From Holosporales bacterium (GTDB taxonomy: Bacteria; Pseudomonadota; Alphaproteobacteria; UBA3830; JAIRWN01), in assembly GCA_031267535.1 (NCBI GenBank), contig JAIRYS010000009.1, forward strand, positions 1 through 41,897: DNA of 41,897 nt, in the 5' to 3' direction. How positions within the stretch are numbered: position 1 is the first letter of the stretch; each line of letters opens with the position of its first letter. A program made the translations under genes and the position numbers. Under the pieces are notes generated by a model. The model worked only from the letters and a program-made list of their open reading frames with translations. It searched no databases and was not told the origin of the DNA. Shown in pieces: positions 1-41,897 of this stretch.

Positions 1-1214
1 ACCGCAGCCAAGAAAAACACTGATGTAGATTTAAGTTGAGATGATCTGCGCAATGGAATCCGCCGAACAGGTTTGCGTATACGGCTTGCGAGCCGCAGCT
101 CAGGCTGCGTACCATCAGATTGACTACCAAGTTTGCCTAGATATGCAGGGGACTTCCGAGACCTGTCGTCACGTATAATGTTCATGTTCGTCTCCTCTGA
201 TGAAGTCACTTTTGATTTCATACCAGTCCCTACTAATGAAGCTTTTTGAGAGAAAGACGATTTGTCTGATGTAGAAATATATCCATCGAGAAAGCCACTG
301 AGGCTTCTAAGTTGCTTTGTTAGCGGCGTATTACCAAATCTACTTAGACTTTCAGACAACCGCGCTGATGTTTTGTTATATCCATCGAGGAGGTCCTTTC
401 GACCTCCGAGCCGCAGCTCAGGCTGCGTGCCATCAGACTTTGCCGCAGCAGAGGATCTCGAGATTCTAACTCTAGCCTGCTGTTGATCTCTTGCCTTTCC
501 GCCTTCTTTCTCCGACAAGCTGAGCAACCTTTGAGCTTTGCTCAGTTTGGGCTTGCTAACGCAAGGCTCGGAAGCCTTAGTGGCTTCCTCGATTGACAGT
601 TCTACGAACTGATTTCTATCCGAGTCAAAACTATCATTCGATTTAAAATTGCGAATCTTATTTAGATAAGAGCCTAATTTACAATTGTAATTTGCCGATT
701 CTGCGAATCTAACTGTCTCTATTTTAGCGCCAACAACCGTTGTTAGCTTGTTGCCTGATTCCTTATCCCAATATCCGCCGAGCGAGCCTGCGAATGCGTT
801 TACGAGCCGCAGCCTTGGCTGTATACCATCTGACTTGCAGTTTTGCTTACCTTTACATTCAGAAGACAGCGACAACTTAGACAAACATCCGCCGAGCAGG
901 CCTGTATTCTGACCTGCAGCCCCCTGCGAACGCAGGGCATTGAGGCAATATTGTCGTTGACCTAGGCCGTCCAGCCGATCACCAGGCCGCGACCCGCTGT
1001 CAAGCTTAGACCTTAACTCATCCGCAGCAATATTGATCAAATCGTCACATATATCGGCCATGCTACGGCCAGAGACAAGGGAGTTTACAAGAGGTTTGTC
1101 CAGATAGGCTTTCTGATTTGACAGATGGGGGGGGGGCAGTTGACTGATATTCAAAAGGTCGCCAGATACTTTAGCTGACACAAAACTACTCAAGCTACCT
1201 TTTATTAAACTCAC
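1..1214 (-). CDS. Repeat-containing hypothetical protein, 3' end beyond the window
   Basis: Hand translation from GTG at 1214 (MSLIKGSLSS...) found no stop down to base 1, about 404 codons. It is absent from the ORF track, presumably because it has no stop in the window. It contains three SDG(T/I)QP(E/R)LRL motifs, one 33-aa unit shared with the ORF at 41372, and an in-frame C10 run (PPPH). Confidence 0.6.
   Translation of the reverse strand, partial: MSLIKGSLSSFVSAKVSGDLLNISQLPPPHLSNQKAYLDKPLVNSLVSGRSMADICDDLINIAADELRSKLDSGSRPGDRLDGLGQRQYCLNALRSQGAAGQNTGLLGGCLSKLSLSSECKGKQNCKSDGIQPRLRLVNAFAGSLGGYWDKESGNKLTTVVGAKIETVRFAESANYNCKLGSYLNKIRNFKSNDSFDSDRNQFVELSIEEATKASEPCVSKPKLSKAQRLLSLSEKEGGKARDQQQARVRISRSSAAAKSDGTQPELRLGGRKDLLDGYNKTSARLSESLSRFGNTPLTKQLRSLSGFLDGYISTSDKSSFSQKASLVGTGMKSKVTSSEETNMNIIRDDRSRKSPAYLGKLGSQSDGTQPELRLASRIRKPVRRIPLRRSSQLKSTSVFFLAA
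58..119 (+). repeat. Two-hairpin palindromic element, copy A
   Basis: ATCCGCCGAAC...GAGCC-GCAGC-TCAG-GCTGC-GTACCATCAGA; matches the copies at 380 and 773. Confidence 0.8.
281..324 (+). repeat. Palindromic element, degenerate copy D
   Basis: ATCCATCGAG-AAAGCC-ACTGA-GGCTTC; stem1 nearly matches copy E in the opposite orientation. Confidence 0.65.
380..437 (+). repeat. Palindromic element, copy C
   Basis: ATCCATCGA-GGAGGTC-CTTTC-GACCTCC-GAGCC-GCAGC-TCAG-GCTGC. Bases 399-426 are the exact reverse complement of 41428-41455. Confidence 0.85.
514..593 (-). repeat. Palindromic element, copy E
   Basis: On the minus strand: ATCGA-GGAAGCC-ACTAA-GGCTTCC-GAGC-CTTGC-GTTA-GCAAG, plus a third stem CTGAGCAA/TTGCTCAG. 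Bases 547-570 are the exact reverse complement of 21668-21691. Confidence 0.85.
773..834 (+). repeat. Palindromic element, copy B
   Basis: ATCCGCCGAGC...GAGCC-GCAGC-CTTG-GCTGT-ATACCATCTGAC; homologous to copy A. Confidence 0.8.
887..937 (+). repeat. Palindromic element, divergent copy H
   Basis: ATCCGCCGA-GCAGG...CCTGC-AGCC-CCCTGCG-AA-CGCAGGG; same architecture with different stem sequences. Confidence 0.55.
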
Positions 1215-1465
1215 CCAAGAAAGCTCTCATCATAGACGTTTACTCGCAAAAAACATCAGAAGGGTACAACATTGCCCCAAGTATATGCAAAGAAAAAAAT
1301 CGAGTCGCATAAGTACCAATCCAAACAGCGCTAGCCATAATAAAAAACAAACCCAAGTCAACCATGTGAAAATTTAAACCTTTGCAAATAATTGACGCAT
1401 ATTTGTTAGCCCGATAGCATTGCAGCTGGTAATTGCGCATATAGACATATGGATGAGGTGTAGCT

Positions 1466-2289: not shown

Positions 2290-3330
2290 TCAGAATAGTT
2301 TTAAAGAACAATCGTCGCAGTTTTTGTTTGGTTGTGATGGTTTGTCTAGGCCAAGGCAACCGTATCCCAAATCTGTGATTACCCTGCCGCGAGAAGTCCT
2401 CTGCACTAAGCCTTGTTGAAGCAAAAATGGTTCTATTACCTCTTCTATTGCGTCTTTTTGCTCGGACAGTACGGCACAAAGGGTCTCTACCCCTACCGGA
2501 CCGCCGTTATAAAATTCTACAATGCACTTTAGATACCGCCGATCCATCATGTCTAGACCTAAATTATCAACTTCAAGACTTGTCAAGGCTTGGTCGGCAA
2601 TTTTTTTGTCAATTTTGCCGACGCCTTTAACTACCGCAAAATCCCATACGCGCCTAAGCAAGCGACAAGCGATTCTCGGCGTTCCGCGTGAGCGTTCCGC
2701 AATTTCCCAAGCGCCTTCGTGTCCTATCTCTACGCCAAAGATAGACGCATTGCGGTTGATGATTGTCTCAAGCTCTTGATGATTATAGAAATCCAAACGC
2801 ATCTGAATGCCAAAGCGGTCTCTAAGCGGCGATGTAAGTAGCCCTGATCTGGTGGTTGCCCCGACTAAGGTAAACCTTGGCAAATCGATTCTGATGGACC
2901 GCGCAGCCGGTCCTTCGCCGATGATTAGGTCGAGCTTAAAATCCTCCATAGCGGGATATAGAACCTCTTCAATTAGGGGGCTAAGCCTGTGAATCTCGTC
3001 TATAAAAAGGACGTCATTAGTCGAAAGATTCGTAAGCAACGCAGCAAGGTCCCCTGCTTTGGCGATCATCGGTCCAGAAGTAGCTTTAAAGCCCACGCCC
3101 ATTTCGCGGGCAATTATCTGGGCTAGCGTGGTCTTGCCCAGTCCCGGCGGGCCGTAGAATATTGTATGATCAATTGCTTGTGCGCGTGATTTGGCGGCCT
3201 TTATAAATACGTCAAGGTTTGATTTCAGTTTAAGCTGGCCAATAAAATCACGTAGGTATTGCGGACGTGTTTCGGCGATGTGTTCAGTATCGGCCTCTTG
3301 ATCGCAAGGAGATAGAATCCTTTCTTTCAT
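2290..3330 (-). CDS. ruvB: Holliday junction branch migration helicase RuvB
   Basis: GPPGLGKTT Walker [17 protein letters not shown] and SRGTPR motifs. Confidence 0.98.
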
Positions 3331-7353: not shown

Positions 7354-7825
7354 TGTCAAGCCCCCGAATTTTGTGCCAGTTGATTCGAAGAATGGCGAGA
7401 GAATAGGATGAACGCTTCAGGAGAGAGGTAATTTAGGGAGGAATGAGGCCGACTTGATTGTATTCCTTTCGACAAATTCCGCTAATGATTTTAGCTTCCT
7501 TCAATTAATAAAACGCCTCGCGATTCAAGAGTTCGTCTCGCAAAGTTACGCAAAACGCTCGATAACGCCGTTTCCCAAGGGCTTTCGGGAGTTATGTAGG
7601 CGGTTTTTACCTCCACGTCACGAATGAACTTTTGCACGTTTTTTGCAATGAACTTAGATCCGTTGTCACCGCGGATAAATTTCGGAATTCCCTTAGCCAA
7701 GAACAGCTTTGAAAGAGCACCCAGCACATGTCTGGATGCGATGCTGCGTTCCACCTGGATTTTCAGCGATTCTTTGGTGAGTTCGTCTATTATGGTGAGG
7801 CATTTGTATTTTCTGCCGTCCACTA
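7354..7825 (-). mobile_element. IS3-family insertion sequence remnant (integrase core fragment plus one terminal inverted repeat)
   Basis: DGRKYKCLTIIDELTKE, P..IRGDNGSKF and PESPWE, then a frameshift. An IS3-like end TGTCAAGCCCCCGAATTTTGTGCCA starts at 7354. The 5' half is missing. Confidence 0.88.
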
Positions 7826-17573: not shown

Positions 17574-17692
17574 GGCCTGGCAGTGAACTACTTTCCCGTA
17601 CCTTAAGGCACAGTATCATCGCCGCTGGGAACTTTCGCTTTCCAGTTCGGAATGGGATGGAGCGTTGGGCTTCCCGCTGTTGCCACCAGGCC
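17574..17692 (-). rRNA. rrf: 5S ribosomal RNA (stand-alone)
   Basis: GGCCTGGTGGC...ATCCCATTCCGAAC...GATGATACTG...GGGAAAGTAG...CTGCCAGGCC with pairing ends; about 119 nt. Confidence 0.93.
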
Positions 17693-40821: not shown

Positions 40822-40841
40822 TTTTTTAATGGAGAACAGGC

Positions 40842-41219
40842 ATGAGTGCAGATTTAGATAAAATTATCGATACGCTTTCCAAGCTTACTGTATTGGAAGC
40901 GGCAGAGCTGAGCAAGAAGCTTGAAGAAGTATGGGGGGTCAGCGCTGCGGCTCCGGTTGCGATGGCGGCTGCTCCTACGGCTGCGGCTGCTCCTGTCGCG
41001 GAAGAAAAAACAGAATTTAACGTGGTTTTAACTGACGTTGGCGCTGAAAAGATTAAAGTCATTAAGGCGGTAAGAGAAATAACCGGCCTCGGCTTAACTG
41101 AAGCAAAAACTTTGGTCGAATCCGCTCCAAAGCCTTTGAAGGAAGGGGTTAACAAAGATGAAGCCGCAGAGATTAAGAAAAAGATCGAAGAAGCCGGCGC
41201 TAAAGTCGAAATAAAATAA
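40842..41219 (+). CDS. rplL: 50S ribosomal protein L7/L12
   Basis: [15 protein letters not shown] and [19 protein letters not shown] motifs. Confidence 0.99.
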
Positions 41220-41371
41220 GAGCGCGGCCGTAAATCGACCACATACGCATCTCAGTGGAATGTATCATCATATGATAATGGGGACACTCGTTTTTCTGGC
41301 GAGGGTTTCCAAATACGGGCGGCGAGATGTGCGTTTAAATTCAAAGTATGAATTTGTGAAAGACTGGTCGT

Positions 41372-41897
41372 TTAGTTAGATCCAGGCGAGGAGATCTGAT
41401 AAAATTTAGAAGCGAGTCCAATATAGTGCAGCCTGAGCTGCGGCTCGGAGGTCGAGAGGGCTTCCTCGATTGCCAGTTCTGCGAACTGGACTCGTTTTAG
41501 GCTAAAACTACTGCCGGATTCAAGGTTATTAACTGTATCTGAATAGAAACTTGATACATGATTATATTTTGCTAACTCTGCGAACTGGACTTTATTTGAG
41601 TTAGAATTATTGTCGAACTTAAAGTCATGAGCTTCGTCCAAAAGAGAACTTGATTTGTAATTATAGGTTGCTGGTTCTTCGAACTGAATTTGTTTTAGGT
41701 TAAAATCGTTACTGGACTCAAAGTTACTAATTGCATCCAAATAACAACTTGATGCATGACTATGTTTTGCCAGTTCTTCGAACTGGACTTTATTTGAGTT
41801 AGAATTATTGTCGAACTTAAAGTCATGAGCTTCGTCCAAAAGAGAACTTGATTTGTAATTATAGGTTGCTAATTCTTCGAACTGATCTTGTTTTAGG
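41372..41897 (-). CDS. 33-aa tandem-repeat hypothetical protein, 5' end beyond the window
   Basis: The frame stays open from the window edge to TAA at 41372. Repeats QF(A/E)E(L/P)A.....SS...D......; it ends in an element-derived IEEALSTSEPQLRL segment. Confidence 0.6.
   Translation of the reverse strand, partial: LKQDQFEELATYNYKSSSLLDEAHDFKFDNNSNSNKVQFEELAKHSHASSCYLDAISNFESSNDFNLKQIQFEEPATYNYKSSSLLDEAHDFKFDNNSNSNKVQFAELAKYNHVSSFYSDTVNNLESGSSFSLKRVQFAELAIEEALSTSEPQLRLHYIGLASKFYQISSPGSN
41428..41470 (-). repeat. Palindromic element, copy G
   Basis: Minus strand ATCGAGGAAGCCCTCTCGACCTCCGAGCCGCAGCTCAGGCTGC; 28 nt identical to copy C. Confidence 0.85.
41471..41897 (-). repeat. 99-bp tandem repeat array with alternating A/B units
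   Basis: CGAACTG recurs at 41482, 41581, 41680, 41779 and 41878 (exactly 99 bp apart); 41581-41699 and 41779-41897 are nearly identical. Confidence 0.92.

Follow-up and report, generated by a model that had tools for sequence, protein, structure and literature searches.

Contig JAIRYS010000009.1 of assembly GCA_031267535.1 (41,897 nucleotides; this whole stretch is called the window below) carries copies of a short palindromic element in which two hairpins of variable sequence are joined by an invariant linker. The element belongs to a lineage-restricted family that is confined to two sister species. On balance, it probably represents a new family of a known kind, akin to repetitive extragenic palindromes (REPs), Rickettsia palindromic elements (RPEs) and neisserial intergenic mosaic elements (NIMEs), whose in-frame appearance would come from stop-free units, mostly multiples of three nucleotides long, that have been reshuffled by recombination. 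A first inspection of the window (the original prediction) had described eight copies and interpreted them as a dispersed miniature element that inserts in frame into genes and supplies peptide modules to new proteins. That observation is confirmed, and its interpretation is partly supported.

The window is the entire contig C26 of a draft genome of 856,400 bases in 37 contigs (G000; 94.9% complete, about 44% G+C). A hit to the TrcR family (PF06242), which we take to be alphaproteobacterial, indicates that the host is probably an alphaproteobacterium. The species genomes of the carrier order (n = 58) are all small, mostly 0.7-1.3 Mb, and include the sister carrier species (G001; 88% DNA identity to G000 in prfB) and a third species of the genus (G002; 77%).

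Copies of the element were gathered genome-wide with nhmmer, and 21 of them were aligned by MAFFT (alignment A1), from which a covariance model, R1, was made. The unit is GC-rich and consists, in order, of ATCGAG, the variable hairpin 1, the invariant CGAGCC, the variable hairpin 2 and a tail; the core is 52-55 nt long and the conserved extent in solo copies, tail included, is about 75-85 nt. The layout described originally, ATCCRYCGAG-stem 1-GAGCC-stem 2, is visible in A1. R1 recovers seven of the eight copies at E < 0.002 genome-wide, the match at 887-923 being marginal (Table 1), and the copy that had been placed at 514 is the far end, with its tail, of a minus-strand copy. The long matches across the window are present: positions 384-426 and 41428-41470 are complementary over 43 nt (93%), and 517-602 and 21636-21721 over 86 nt (72%). 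Exact runs of 28 and 24 nt are legible in the sequences.

The stems differ between copies yet pair, through two-sided changes that point to a constraint at the level of the nucleic acid. In A1, 87.9% of the cells are paired, compared with 27-47% after displacement of the 3' partners by 1-3 columns, and two-sided changes occur in 7 of the 13 pairs. Among 60 copies from the two carrier species (alignment A2, which was aligned to R1 and is hence biased towards the model), helix 1 is paired at 90.4%, all 13 pairs show two-sided changes, and the cells with such changes number 106, compared with 42.7 in shuffles. Stem 1 occurs as GGAGGTC/GACCTCC, GGAAGCC/GGCTTCC, GCAGGC/GCCTGC, GCAGAT/ATCTGC, GGAAGCT/AGCTTCC and other versions, with 46 distinct arm pairs in the 60 copies. 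The stem-1 mismatches in the same copies (A.C 36, G.T 27, other 11) are mostly of the transition type and strand-symmetric. As A.C and G.T are similarly common, pairing is not favoured on one RNA strand, and its maintenance fits a cause that acts on the DNA or regardless of orientation. One known mutational route, the correction of quasi-palindromes by template switching, could leave arms complementary with no function involved; the covariation therefore shows that pairing has been kept, not necessarily that it serves a function.

The structural constraint proposed originally holds for the family, in which pairing is kept, and not for each member, as not every copy is a good hairpin. When RNA folds were compared with 200 shuffles, only the copies at 380-431 and 546-597 were clearly better (z -3.3 to -4.0; 0-2 of 200 shuffles equal); the copy at 887-937 reached z -2.0, and those at 58, 773, 281, 41423 and 21646 lay at -0.6 to -1.5; over all the copies folded, several lay between -0.45 and -1.5. 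The family is thus a mixture of intact and decaying copies.

Scanning of the genome and its relatives with R1, a step that the original prediction had proposed, gave 31 copies in G000, on 13 of its 37 contigs, and 34 matches in G001; the rest of the order, namely G002, G003 and the remaining 54 of the 58 genomes, the other genus of the carriers' family included, gave none, even with lax filters. Across the class, 150 genomes sampled over its families yielded a single weak match. When 185,579 species genomes and JGI metagenomes were scanned for an exact 28-nt degenerate pattern, the only hits were isolated GC-rich sites, which reach 17-27 bits with R1, hairpin 1 alone contributing. The element had not been recognised as a described family, and in agreement Rfam has no match at the elements, either at gathering score over the whole window or at E <= 1 in positions 1-1300. 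Comparison of positions 350-640 with plasmids and phages by blastn gave no match, and full-text literature searches on palindromic repeats, RPEs and NIMEs turned up no description of the family. G000 and G001 share orthologous copies at two loci, one downstream of prfB and the other where uvrB ends at its 3' side, which indicates that the family predates the split between these species.

Contrary to the original interpretation, the copies are not widely dispersed. In G000, 26 of 31 are no more than 2 kb from a contig end, grouped in mosaic arrays that flank a family of outer-membrane beta-barrel lipoprotein genes or lie between housekeeping genes. Copies do exist outside the paralogous open reading frames (ORFs): solo copies follow prfB, precede uvrC, adjoin ffh and sit at the 3' end of uvrB. 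None of the 31 lies in the interior of a conserved housekeeping gene. In the arrays, the usual left neighbour of the element is a small palindrome termed H0, whose two orientations are read as QF[A/E/V]EL and QFCEL; exact H0 sites number seven in the genome, compared with 0.05 expected, and all are at arrays. A second partner module resembles the 5' start of a gene: it contains a site similar to a Shine-Dalgarno sequence, along with an ATG and the basic peptide ...YLGKLSRKFS. Facing copies also form a recurrent composite unit of 218 nt (Table 1); the idea that this unit is a deletion derivative of a lipoprotein cassette was rejected, as the internal sequences are unrelated. One further array lies directly upstream of an rseP-bamA-skp cluster (L001:235-987, on contig C30 of G000). 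In G001, two element copies lie downstream of the gene for ribosomal protein S9 (L057:534-1502, contig C35), a protein whose N-terminus is extended by about 190 residues in which K, A, S and T abound.

The first 92 bases of the window (C26:1-92) are identical to the last 92 of contig C37 (C37:38752-38843), so the repeat cluster at the start of the window lies on an assembly break. Exact 119-nt overlaps between many contig ends in G000 are the signature of the assembly graph. At least one other large repeat family, unrelated to the element, gives 24-49 blastn hits per contig end and occupies the right ends of C3 and C9, the left end of C27, C32 and the left region of C29.

Several observations point to recombination within and around the copies. 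Left-flank, hairpin-1 and hairpin-2 types occur in all combinations in both species; when left flank (Q or Y) is tabulated against hairpin 2 (A or B), the counts are Q-A 5, Q-B 13, Y-A 13 plus 7 of an A' subtype, and Y-B 4, and 17 of the 60 copies were unassigned for flank, for hairpin 2 or for both. Several copies are chimeric, the left arm being of one type and the right arm of another, including the copy near the right end of the window. A leader common to C26 and C17 diverges exactly at the C26 element. Gene order differs from that of relatives at the prfB-rplY and uvrC-tRNA-phaC junctions, both of which hold solo copies, and uvrC and tRNA-phaC are unlinked in G001, G002 and G003. The flanks of the C41 locus in G001 (L058) correspond to the two ends of contig C20 in G000, inverted. 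Here C20:448-1061 and C20:20365-21722, about 19 kb apart, match the L058 flanks in inverted arrangement, and the inversion breakpoints coincide with arrays.

These features are consistent with a family that would now spread and reshuffle mainly together with its flanks, by homologous or template-switch recombination at the hairpins and by segmental duplication rather than by cut-and-paste transposition. The arrays would then be substrates for recombination, through which surface-protein genes exchange their 5' and 3' flanks and inversions arise. Stop-free units would be tolerated in weakly constrained translated stretches, such as the leader ahead of a lipoprotein signal peptide and the last codons of uvrB; as the units are stop-free and mostly multiples of 3 nt, they resemble in-frame insertions.

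Several points weigh against this proposal. Recombination is read from assemblies rather than from sequencing reads. There is no clean pair of filled and empty sites, since the flanks in G002 are too diverged or rearranged: the region downstream of prfB is not alignable in G002, the neighbours of rplL differ in G001 and G002, and the 3' end of uvrB in G002 has no element in a stretch too diverged to serve as a clean empty site. The copies are paralogues, so that the covariation counts, the table of four combinations and the spacing test (below) do not count independent events, and A2 was fitted to R1. The contigs of this draft break in arrays, and a transposase or extra copies could therefore be unassembled. 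In addition, G001 has one intact IS200-like Y1 transposase, which could act in trans. Finally, the frame of 408 codons that covers the array at the start of the window is stop-free and in frame with a lipoprotein gene, as are the leaders of three paralogues in G001; passive tolerance is hard put to explain so long a frame, and some selection for translation is likely.

At positions 1-1226 the 408-codon frame has no stop, compared with 13-39 in the other five frames, and both orientations of the element are read through in this minus-strand frame, as SDGTQPELRL...LDGY and IEEA...SEP, exactly as first described. In 12 of 13 array regions one frame has 0-5 stops and the others have 8-49; the exception is a large array on contig C33 of G001, with at least 20 stops in every frame. 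Spacings between neighbours of the same orientation are divisible by 3 in 12 of 18 cases (binomial p 0.004 against one third, for copies that are not independent), and the units are stop-free in several frames. Constraint on the peptides appears weak. Differences between paralogous array modules fall on the three codon positions as 25:35:37, with pN/pS 0.55, compared with 51:45:170 and omega 0.10 for uvrC between G000 and G001, and omega 0.27 for the lipoprotein paralogues. A codon-usage score ranked the true frame first in 98 of 100 long control genes (mean 0.207, minimum 0.074); array frames range from 0.014 to 0.111, with an antisense frame often scoring higher, and the 408-codon frame, at 0.059, lies below all 100 controls. 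Array ORFs have no Pfam or NCBIfam hits and no homologues outside the lineage among 5.8 billion or 1.84 billion proteins. The nine hits among the 1.84 billion representatives comprise eight short array ORFs of like kind and an unrelated repeat protein of 1693 aa (P0003). Used as a query, the 408-codon frame retrieved nothing but itself, such short array ORFs and P0003. We read the arrays as at most weakly constrained translated stretches, not ordinary genes.

The end of uvrB offers a direct comparison between the two carriers. In G001 a copy begins 5 nt beyond the stop codon; in G000 a 12-nt deletion has removed sequence including the native stop, and five codons are read into the element until a stop in the hairpin loop. 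This deletion is a concrete route from an extragenic repeat to coding sequence.

The original interpretation, an RPE-like selfish mobile element that inserts in frame and in either orientation into pre-existing genes, donating peptide modules, draws on much of the same evidence: both orientations lie stop-free in one frame, units lack stops in several frames, the copy at uvrB supplies the last codons and the stop, the copy-bearing leaders are in frame with the lipoprotein in every intact paralogue having an upstream copy (see below), and gene callers annotate such ORFs. Against insertion into genes stand the absence of copies from conserved gene interiors in G000 and the uvrB case, which is a loss of a stop and not an insertion. 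Furthermore, the copies carry shared flanks instead of being clean inserts, and the large G001 array is full of stops. The supply of peptide modules to new proteins is unproven, because the host ORFs are themselves built of modules, lack homologues outside the lineage, change in a near-neutral manner uniformly over codon positions and have non-genic codon usage. We regard in-frame insertion as unlikely.

The frame at the start of the window runs in frame into a lipoprotein gene on C37, whose product has a signal peptide with a lipobox and, at its C-terminus, a domain of about 285 residues. This domain has a weak match, below cut-off, to OMP_b-brl; its structural model is all-beta with a mean predicted local distance difference test (pLDDT) score of 66, and Foldseek places only outer-membrane barrels near it, at low template-modelling (TM) scores of about 0.3, so that outer-membrane barrel is to be taken as a predicted class label only, of modest fold confidence. 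The lipoprotein family is limited to the taxonomic family of the window; G000 has 3-4 members, G001 has 7-8, G002 has several, and the members in G003 are distant. Of 7 paralogues in G001, 4 have a sense copy 94-100 nt ahead of the mature lipoprotein; of the 5 for which downstream sequence is available, 3 have an antisense copy 41-43 nt past the stop. On either side of the C41 paralogue in G001 lies a stretch of about 70 nt made up of an H0 palindrome and an element, the two stretches being inverted. The leader is in frame with the lipoprotein in all four intact paralogues that have an upstream copy, three of which are mutually paralogous. With filters off, no copy was found at two of the three G000 paralogues or at the G002 paralogues examined; the G002 genes run from ATG through polyG to the signal peptide and lack an array.

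PolyG tracts accompany the lipoprotein family and the arrays. In addition to two in the window (Table 1), ATG/polyG sites occur at about position 69560 of C22 in G000, at L058:1693-1705 in G001, and in L070 and L074 in G002. The tracts are G10-G13 and stand directly after the ATG or just inside the N-terminus (MGLLIIRAGGGG(G)SHY in G002); by their sequence they are candidate sites of slipped-strand phase variation. At L058 in G001, the tract of G11 leaves the ATG out of frame, and G10 would join a leader-plus-lipoprotein frame of 401 codons. It is conceivable, though improbable, that the arrays serve as disposable leaders that are translated and lie between an ATG-polyG start subject to phase variation and the lipobox, with the hairpins coupling expression and swapping 5' cassettes. 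Expression of the downstream gene would then depend on in-frame read-through of the hairpin modules by ribosomes, and these modules would be the joints at which surface-protein genes exchange 5' cassettes. If so, the arrays would be a new type of contingency locus, with a palindromic family domesticated in the coding leader of a reduced-genome alphaproteobacterium.

The enzymes that might mobilise the element were also sought, and neither target duplications nor a cognate transposase, both of which the original prediction had suggested looking for, were found. G000 contains no Y1_Tnp, DDE_Tnp_1, resolvase, RVT_1 or OrfB_IS605 domain. It has two tyrosine recombinases, one of them XerC-like and inside the window, and broken rve fragments at 7491-7823 (minus strand) of the window and at C25:8874-9161, one with an internal TAG; these fragments are insertion-sequence remnants in a nearly transposase-free genome. 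The solo copies show no target-site duplication. The Y1 transposase of G001 (158 aa; L097:1935-2411, C35:6934-7410) adjoins a gene similar to those for outer-membrane proteins and polyC/polyG tracts, and no counterpart was found in G000, G002 or G003. With filters off, R1 has no match within about 2 kb of this gene, arguing against an arrangement like a REPtron, and the hairpins that flank it look unrelated to the element.

The element might alternatively be an orphan of the REP type or of the palindrome-associated transposable element (PATE) type, moved in trans by a Y1 (IS200-like or REP-associated tyrosine transposase (RAYT)-like) enzyme that survives in G001 and is lost or unassembled in G000. 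As in REPs, the hairpin varies in sequence and is preceded by a conserved single-stranded head (ATCGAG), inverted pairs exist in the 218-nt unit, the intact Y1_Tnp is in a carrier and is absent from the non-carriers G002 and G003, and many G000 copies are decaying. This association is based on four genomes, and it is weakened by the 31 copies in G000, which has no such enzyme, and by the lack of a related hairpin or R1 match around the G001 gene. Also, no GTAG tag is found in the copies listed, of which only about 8 of 60 have a CGTC-type stem. Mobilisation in trans of this kind is unlikely.

Regulation in cis by RNA hairpins in mRNA leaders or 3' untranslated regions, acting on stability, processing or translation-coupled on/off control, would account for the regular positions at the G001 lipoprotein genes before the mature protein and after the stop, for the ATG-polyG tracts upstream and for the strong folding of the canonical copies. 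The element occurs in both orientations relative to the flanked genes, its G.T and A.C mismatches argue against selection on one RNA strand, no T-run follows the hairpins, copies are missing from most G000 and all examined G002 lipoprotein paralogues, and many copies fold no better than shuffles. We consider this role quite unlikely. The lack of a T-run also led to rejection of the intrinsic terminator; a scan of positions 1-1500 flagged no hairpin-1 or hairpin-2 site and a single weak site, at H0, no more than in shuffles. That the arrays are ordinary lineage-specific repetitive surface or secreted proteins, with repeats kept for their peptides and hairpins incidental, is very unlikely: open frames of 408, 250 and 246 codons, spacings mostly in multiples of 3 and recurrent peptide motifs common to both species would agree with it, but compensatory changes alter the peptide and keep the pairing (GGRKDLL, GSREGFL and AGACAGLL), one and the same DNA serves in either orientation and in differing relative frames, substitution is near-neutral with non-genic codon usage, solo copies are intergenic and neither Pfam nor NCBIfam gives a hit. 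G000 has no reverse transcriptase, and for that reason a diversity-generating retroelement or retron was dropped.

Among described systems, the RPEs are close in behaviour. In the portions of the RPE accounts drawn on here, they are palindromic and 100-150 bp long (PMC3767692), carry the tetranucleotide CGTC at one end (PMC3733652) and lie inside unrelated conserved housekeeping genes (PMC10969869; PMC3767692; PMC3733652). Like RPEs as described there, the present family consists of short palindromic repeats in a reduced alphaproteobacterial genome that leave the frame unbroken inside reading frames, has no known dedicated transposase and is inherited at the same loci by related species. Unlike RPEs so described, it is shorter, clusters in mosaic arrays instead of entering conserved gene interiors and has the CGTC-type stem in only one hairpin-2 subtype; moreover, its carrier is from a different order, being one of 58 species genomes. 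The family is set apart from RPEs by description, on size, tag and placement.

REPs, with bacterial interspersed mosaic elements (BIMEs) and REPINs (inverted REP doublets), share a conserved head followed by an imperfect variable palindrome, and REPs and BIMEs occur as solo copies downstream of or between convergent genes, as inverted dimers and clusters, and occasionally within genes, according to the part of the literature used here (PMC3733652). The solo copies and inverted pairs of the present family fit such extragenic placement, and most copies lie in open-frame arrays. Compared with the tagged 20-40-bp palindrome of REPs in these accounts, the element has no GTAG/CGTC tag beside its head ATCGAG and linker CGAGCC; its two hairpins are joined by the invariant CGAGCC, its arrays keep an open frame, and no RAYT flanked by repeats is present.

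NIMEs are described, in the sections of PMC1797815 drawn on, as dRS3 inverted repeats (ATTCCC-N8-GGGAAT) flanking RS modules, in arrays not seen outside Neisseria and proposed to be recombination substrates. As in that description, short inverted-repeat units separate 50-150-bp modules of several families, and the arrays vary between close relatives, adjoin surface-protein genes and occur in a genome with homopolymer-tract genes (PMC1797815). There is no sequence relation, the likeness being one of behaviour only, and NIME arrays are non-coding in that account, whereas the arrays here keep a stop-free frame that can fuse to the flanked gene (PMC1797815). [quoted passage not shown] Unlike MITEs, the present family shows no target-site duplication, no autonomous insertion sequence with matching ends was found, and its 'terminal' copies in G001 can enclose a whole lipoprotein gene.

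In the same partial accounts, coding-compatible palindromes are treated as a peculiarity of Rickettsia and Wolbachia (PMC3767692), and mosaic surface-antigen arrays as one of Neisseria (PMC1797815). The present family joins both behaviours and belongs to an uncultured, unrelated lineage whose genome is about 0.86 Mb. As a young and small system (about 30 copies), it bears on how palindromic repeats can arise where no transposase is obvious, on how their pairing is kept, and on how repeats remodel surface-protein loci and gene order in reduced genomes. On the practical side, the arrays disrupt assembly and yield long ORF calls that are probably not ordinary genes.

Table 1. Element copies and associated features of the window (z, predicted RNA fold relative to shuffled sequences).
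Feature	Position	Strand	Description	R1 match	Fold
Canonical copy	380..431	+	ATCCATCGAG; hairpin 1 GGAGGTC/GACCTCC, loop 5; CGAGCC; hairpin 2 CGCAGC/GCTGCG, loop 4; minus-strand reading ...QPELRLGGRKDLLDGY	74.6 bits	-26.1 kcal/mol, z -3.98, 0/200 shuffles equal
Canonical copy, second type	546..597	-	hairpin 1 GGAAGCC/GGCTTCC; hairpin 2 CTTGC/GCAAG, shifted 1 nt; minus-strand peptide IEEATKASEPCVSKPK	52.6 bits	z -3.78
Long-variant copy	58..113	+	hairpin 1 region of 22-23 nt; on the minus strand, a few nt upstream of the possible TTG start, a putative start codon, of the signal peptide MRRSSQLKSTSVFFLAAVAIISSGC	52.5 bits	z -0.60
Half copy	281..332	+	hairpin 1 retained, hairpin 2 region diverged	21 bits, E 0.0017	z -1.0
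Long-variant copy, partly decayed	773..827	+		47.1 bits	z -1.0
Marginal copy	887..937 (R1 match 887-923)	+	different hairpin 2, CCCTGCG/CGCAGGG	13.9 bits, E 0.24	z -2.03
Decayed solo copy, second type	21646..21692	+	between uvrC and tRNA-phaC	28.1 bits	z -0.72
Chimeric copy	41423..41474	-	hairpin 1 left arm of GGAAGCC type, right arm of GACCTCC type; hairpin 2 of first type; peptide reading IEEALSTSEPQLRL	63.0 bits	z -1.46
218-nt composite unit	380..597		two facing copies, spacer about 110 nt; also at C17:1607-1824 and C15:11293-11510; shared peptide ...SEPCVSKPKLSKAQRLL...AAAKSDGTQPELRL		
H0 small palindrome	597..611		CAGTTC-NNN-GAACTG		
Stop-free frame of repeat modules	3..1226	-	408 codons		
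ATG + G10	1124..1137	+	read as PPP within the minus-strand frame		
ATG + G11	21539-21551		about 100 nt upstream of the copy at 21646..21692		
99-nt tandem repeat (33 codons)	41470..41865		with H0 palindromes at 41474 and 41771		
Right-end array	downstream of rplL (40842-41219, +) to contig end		99-nt repeat and chimeric copy		
Right-end open frame	41375-41896	-	174 codons		

A minus-strand ORF of 138 codons at 40826-41242, next to the right-end array, is probably an antisense shadow of rplL. Elsewhere in the window, an isolated 5S rRNA gene lies at 17575-17690 (minus strand) with protein ORFs on both sides, and no 23S or 16S match was found anywhere in the 41.9 kb. The last approximately 280 nt of ruvB (2290-3330, minus strand) are duplicated 333 nt downstream with 82-97% identity (2002-2280 and 2335-2613), leaving a 3' fragment beyond the gene.

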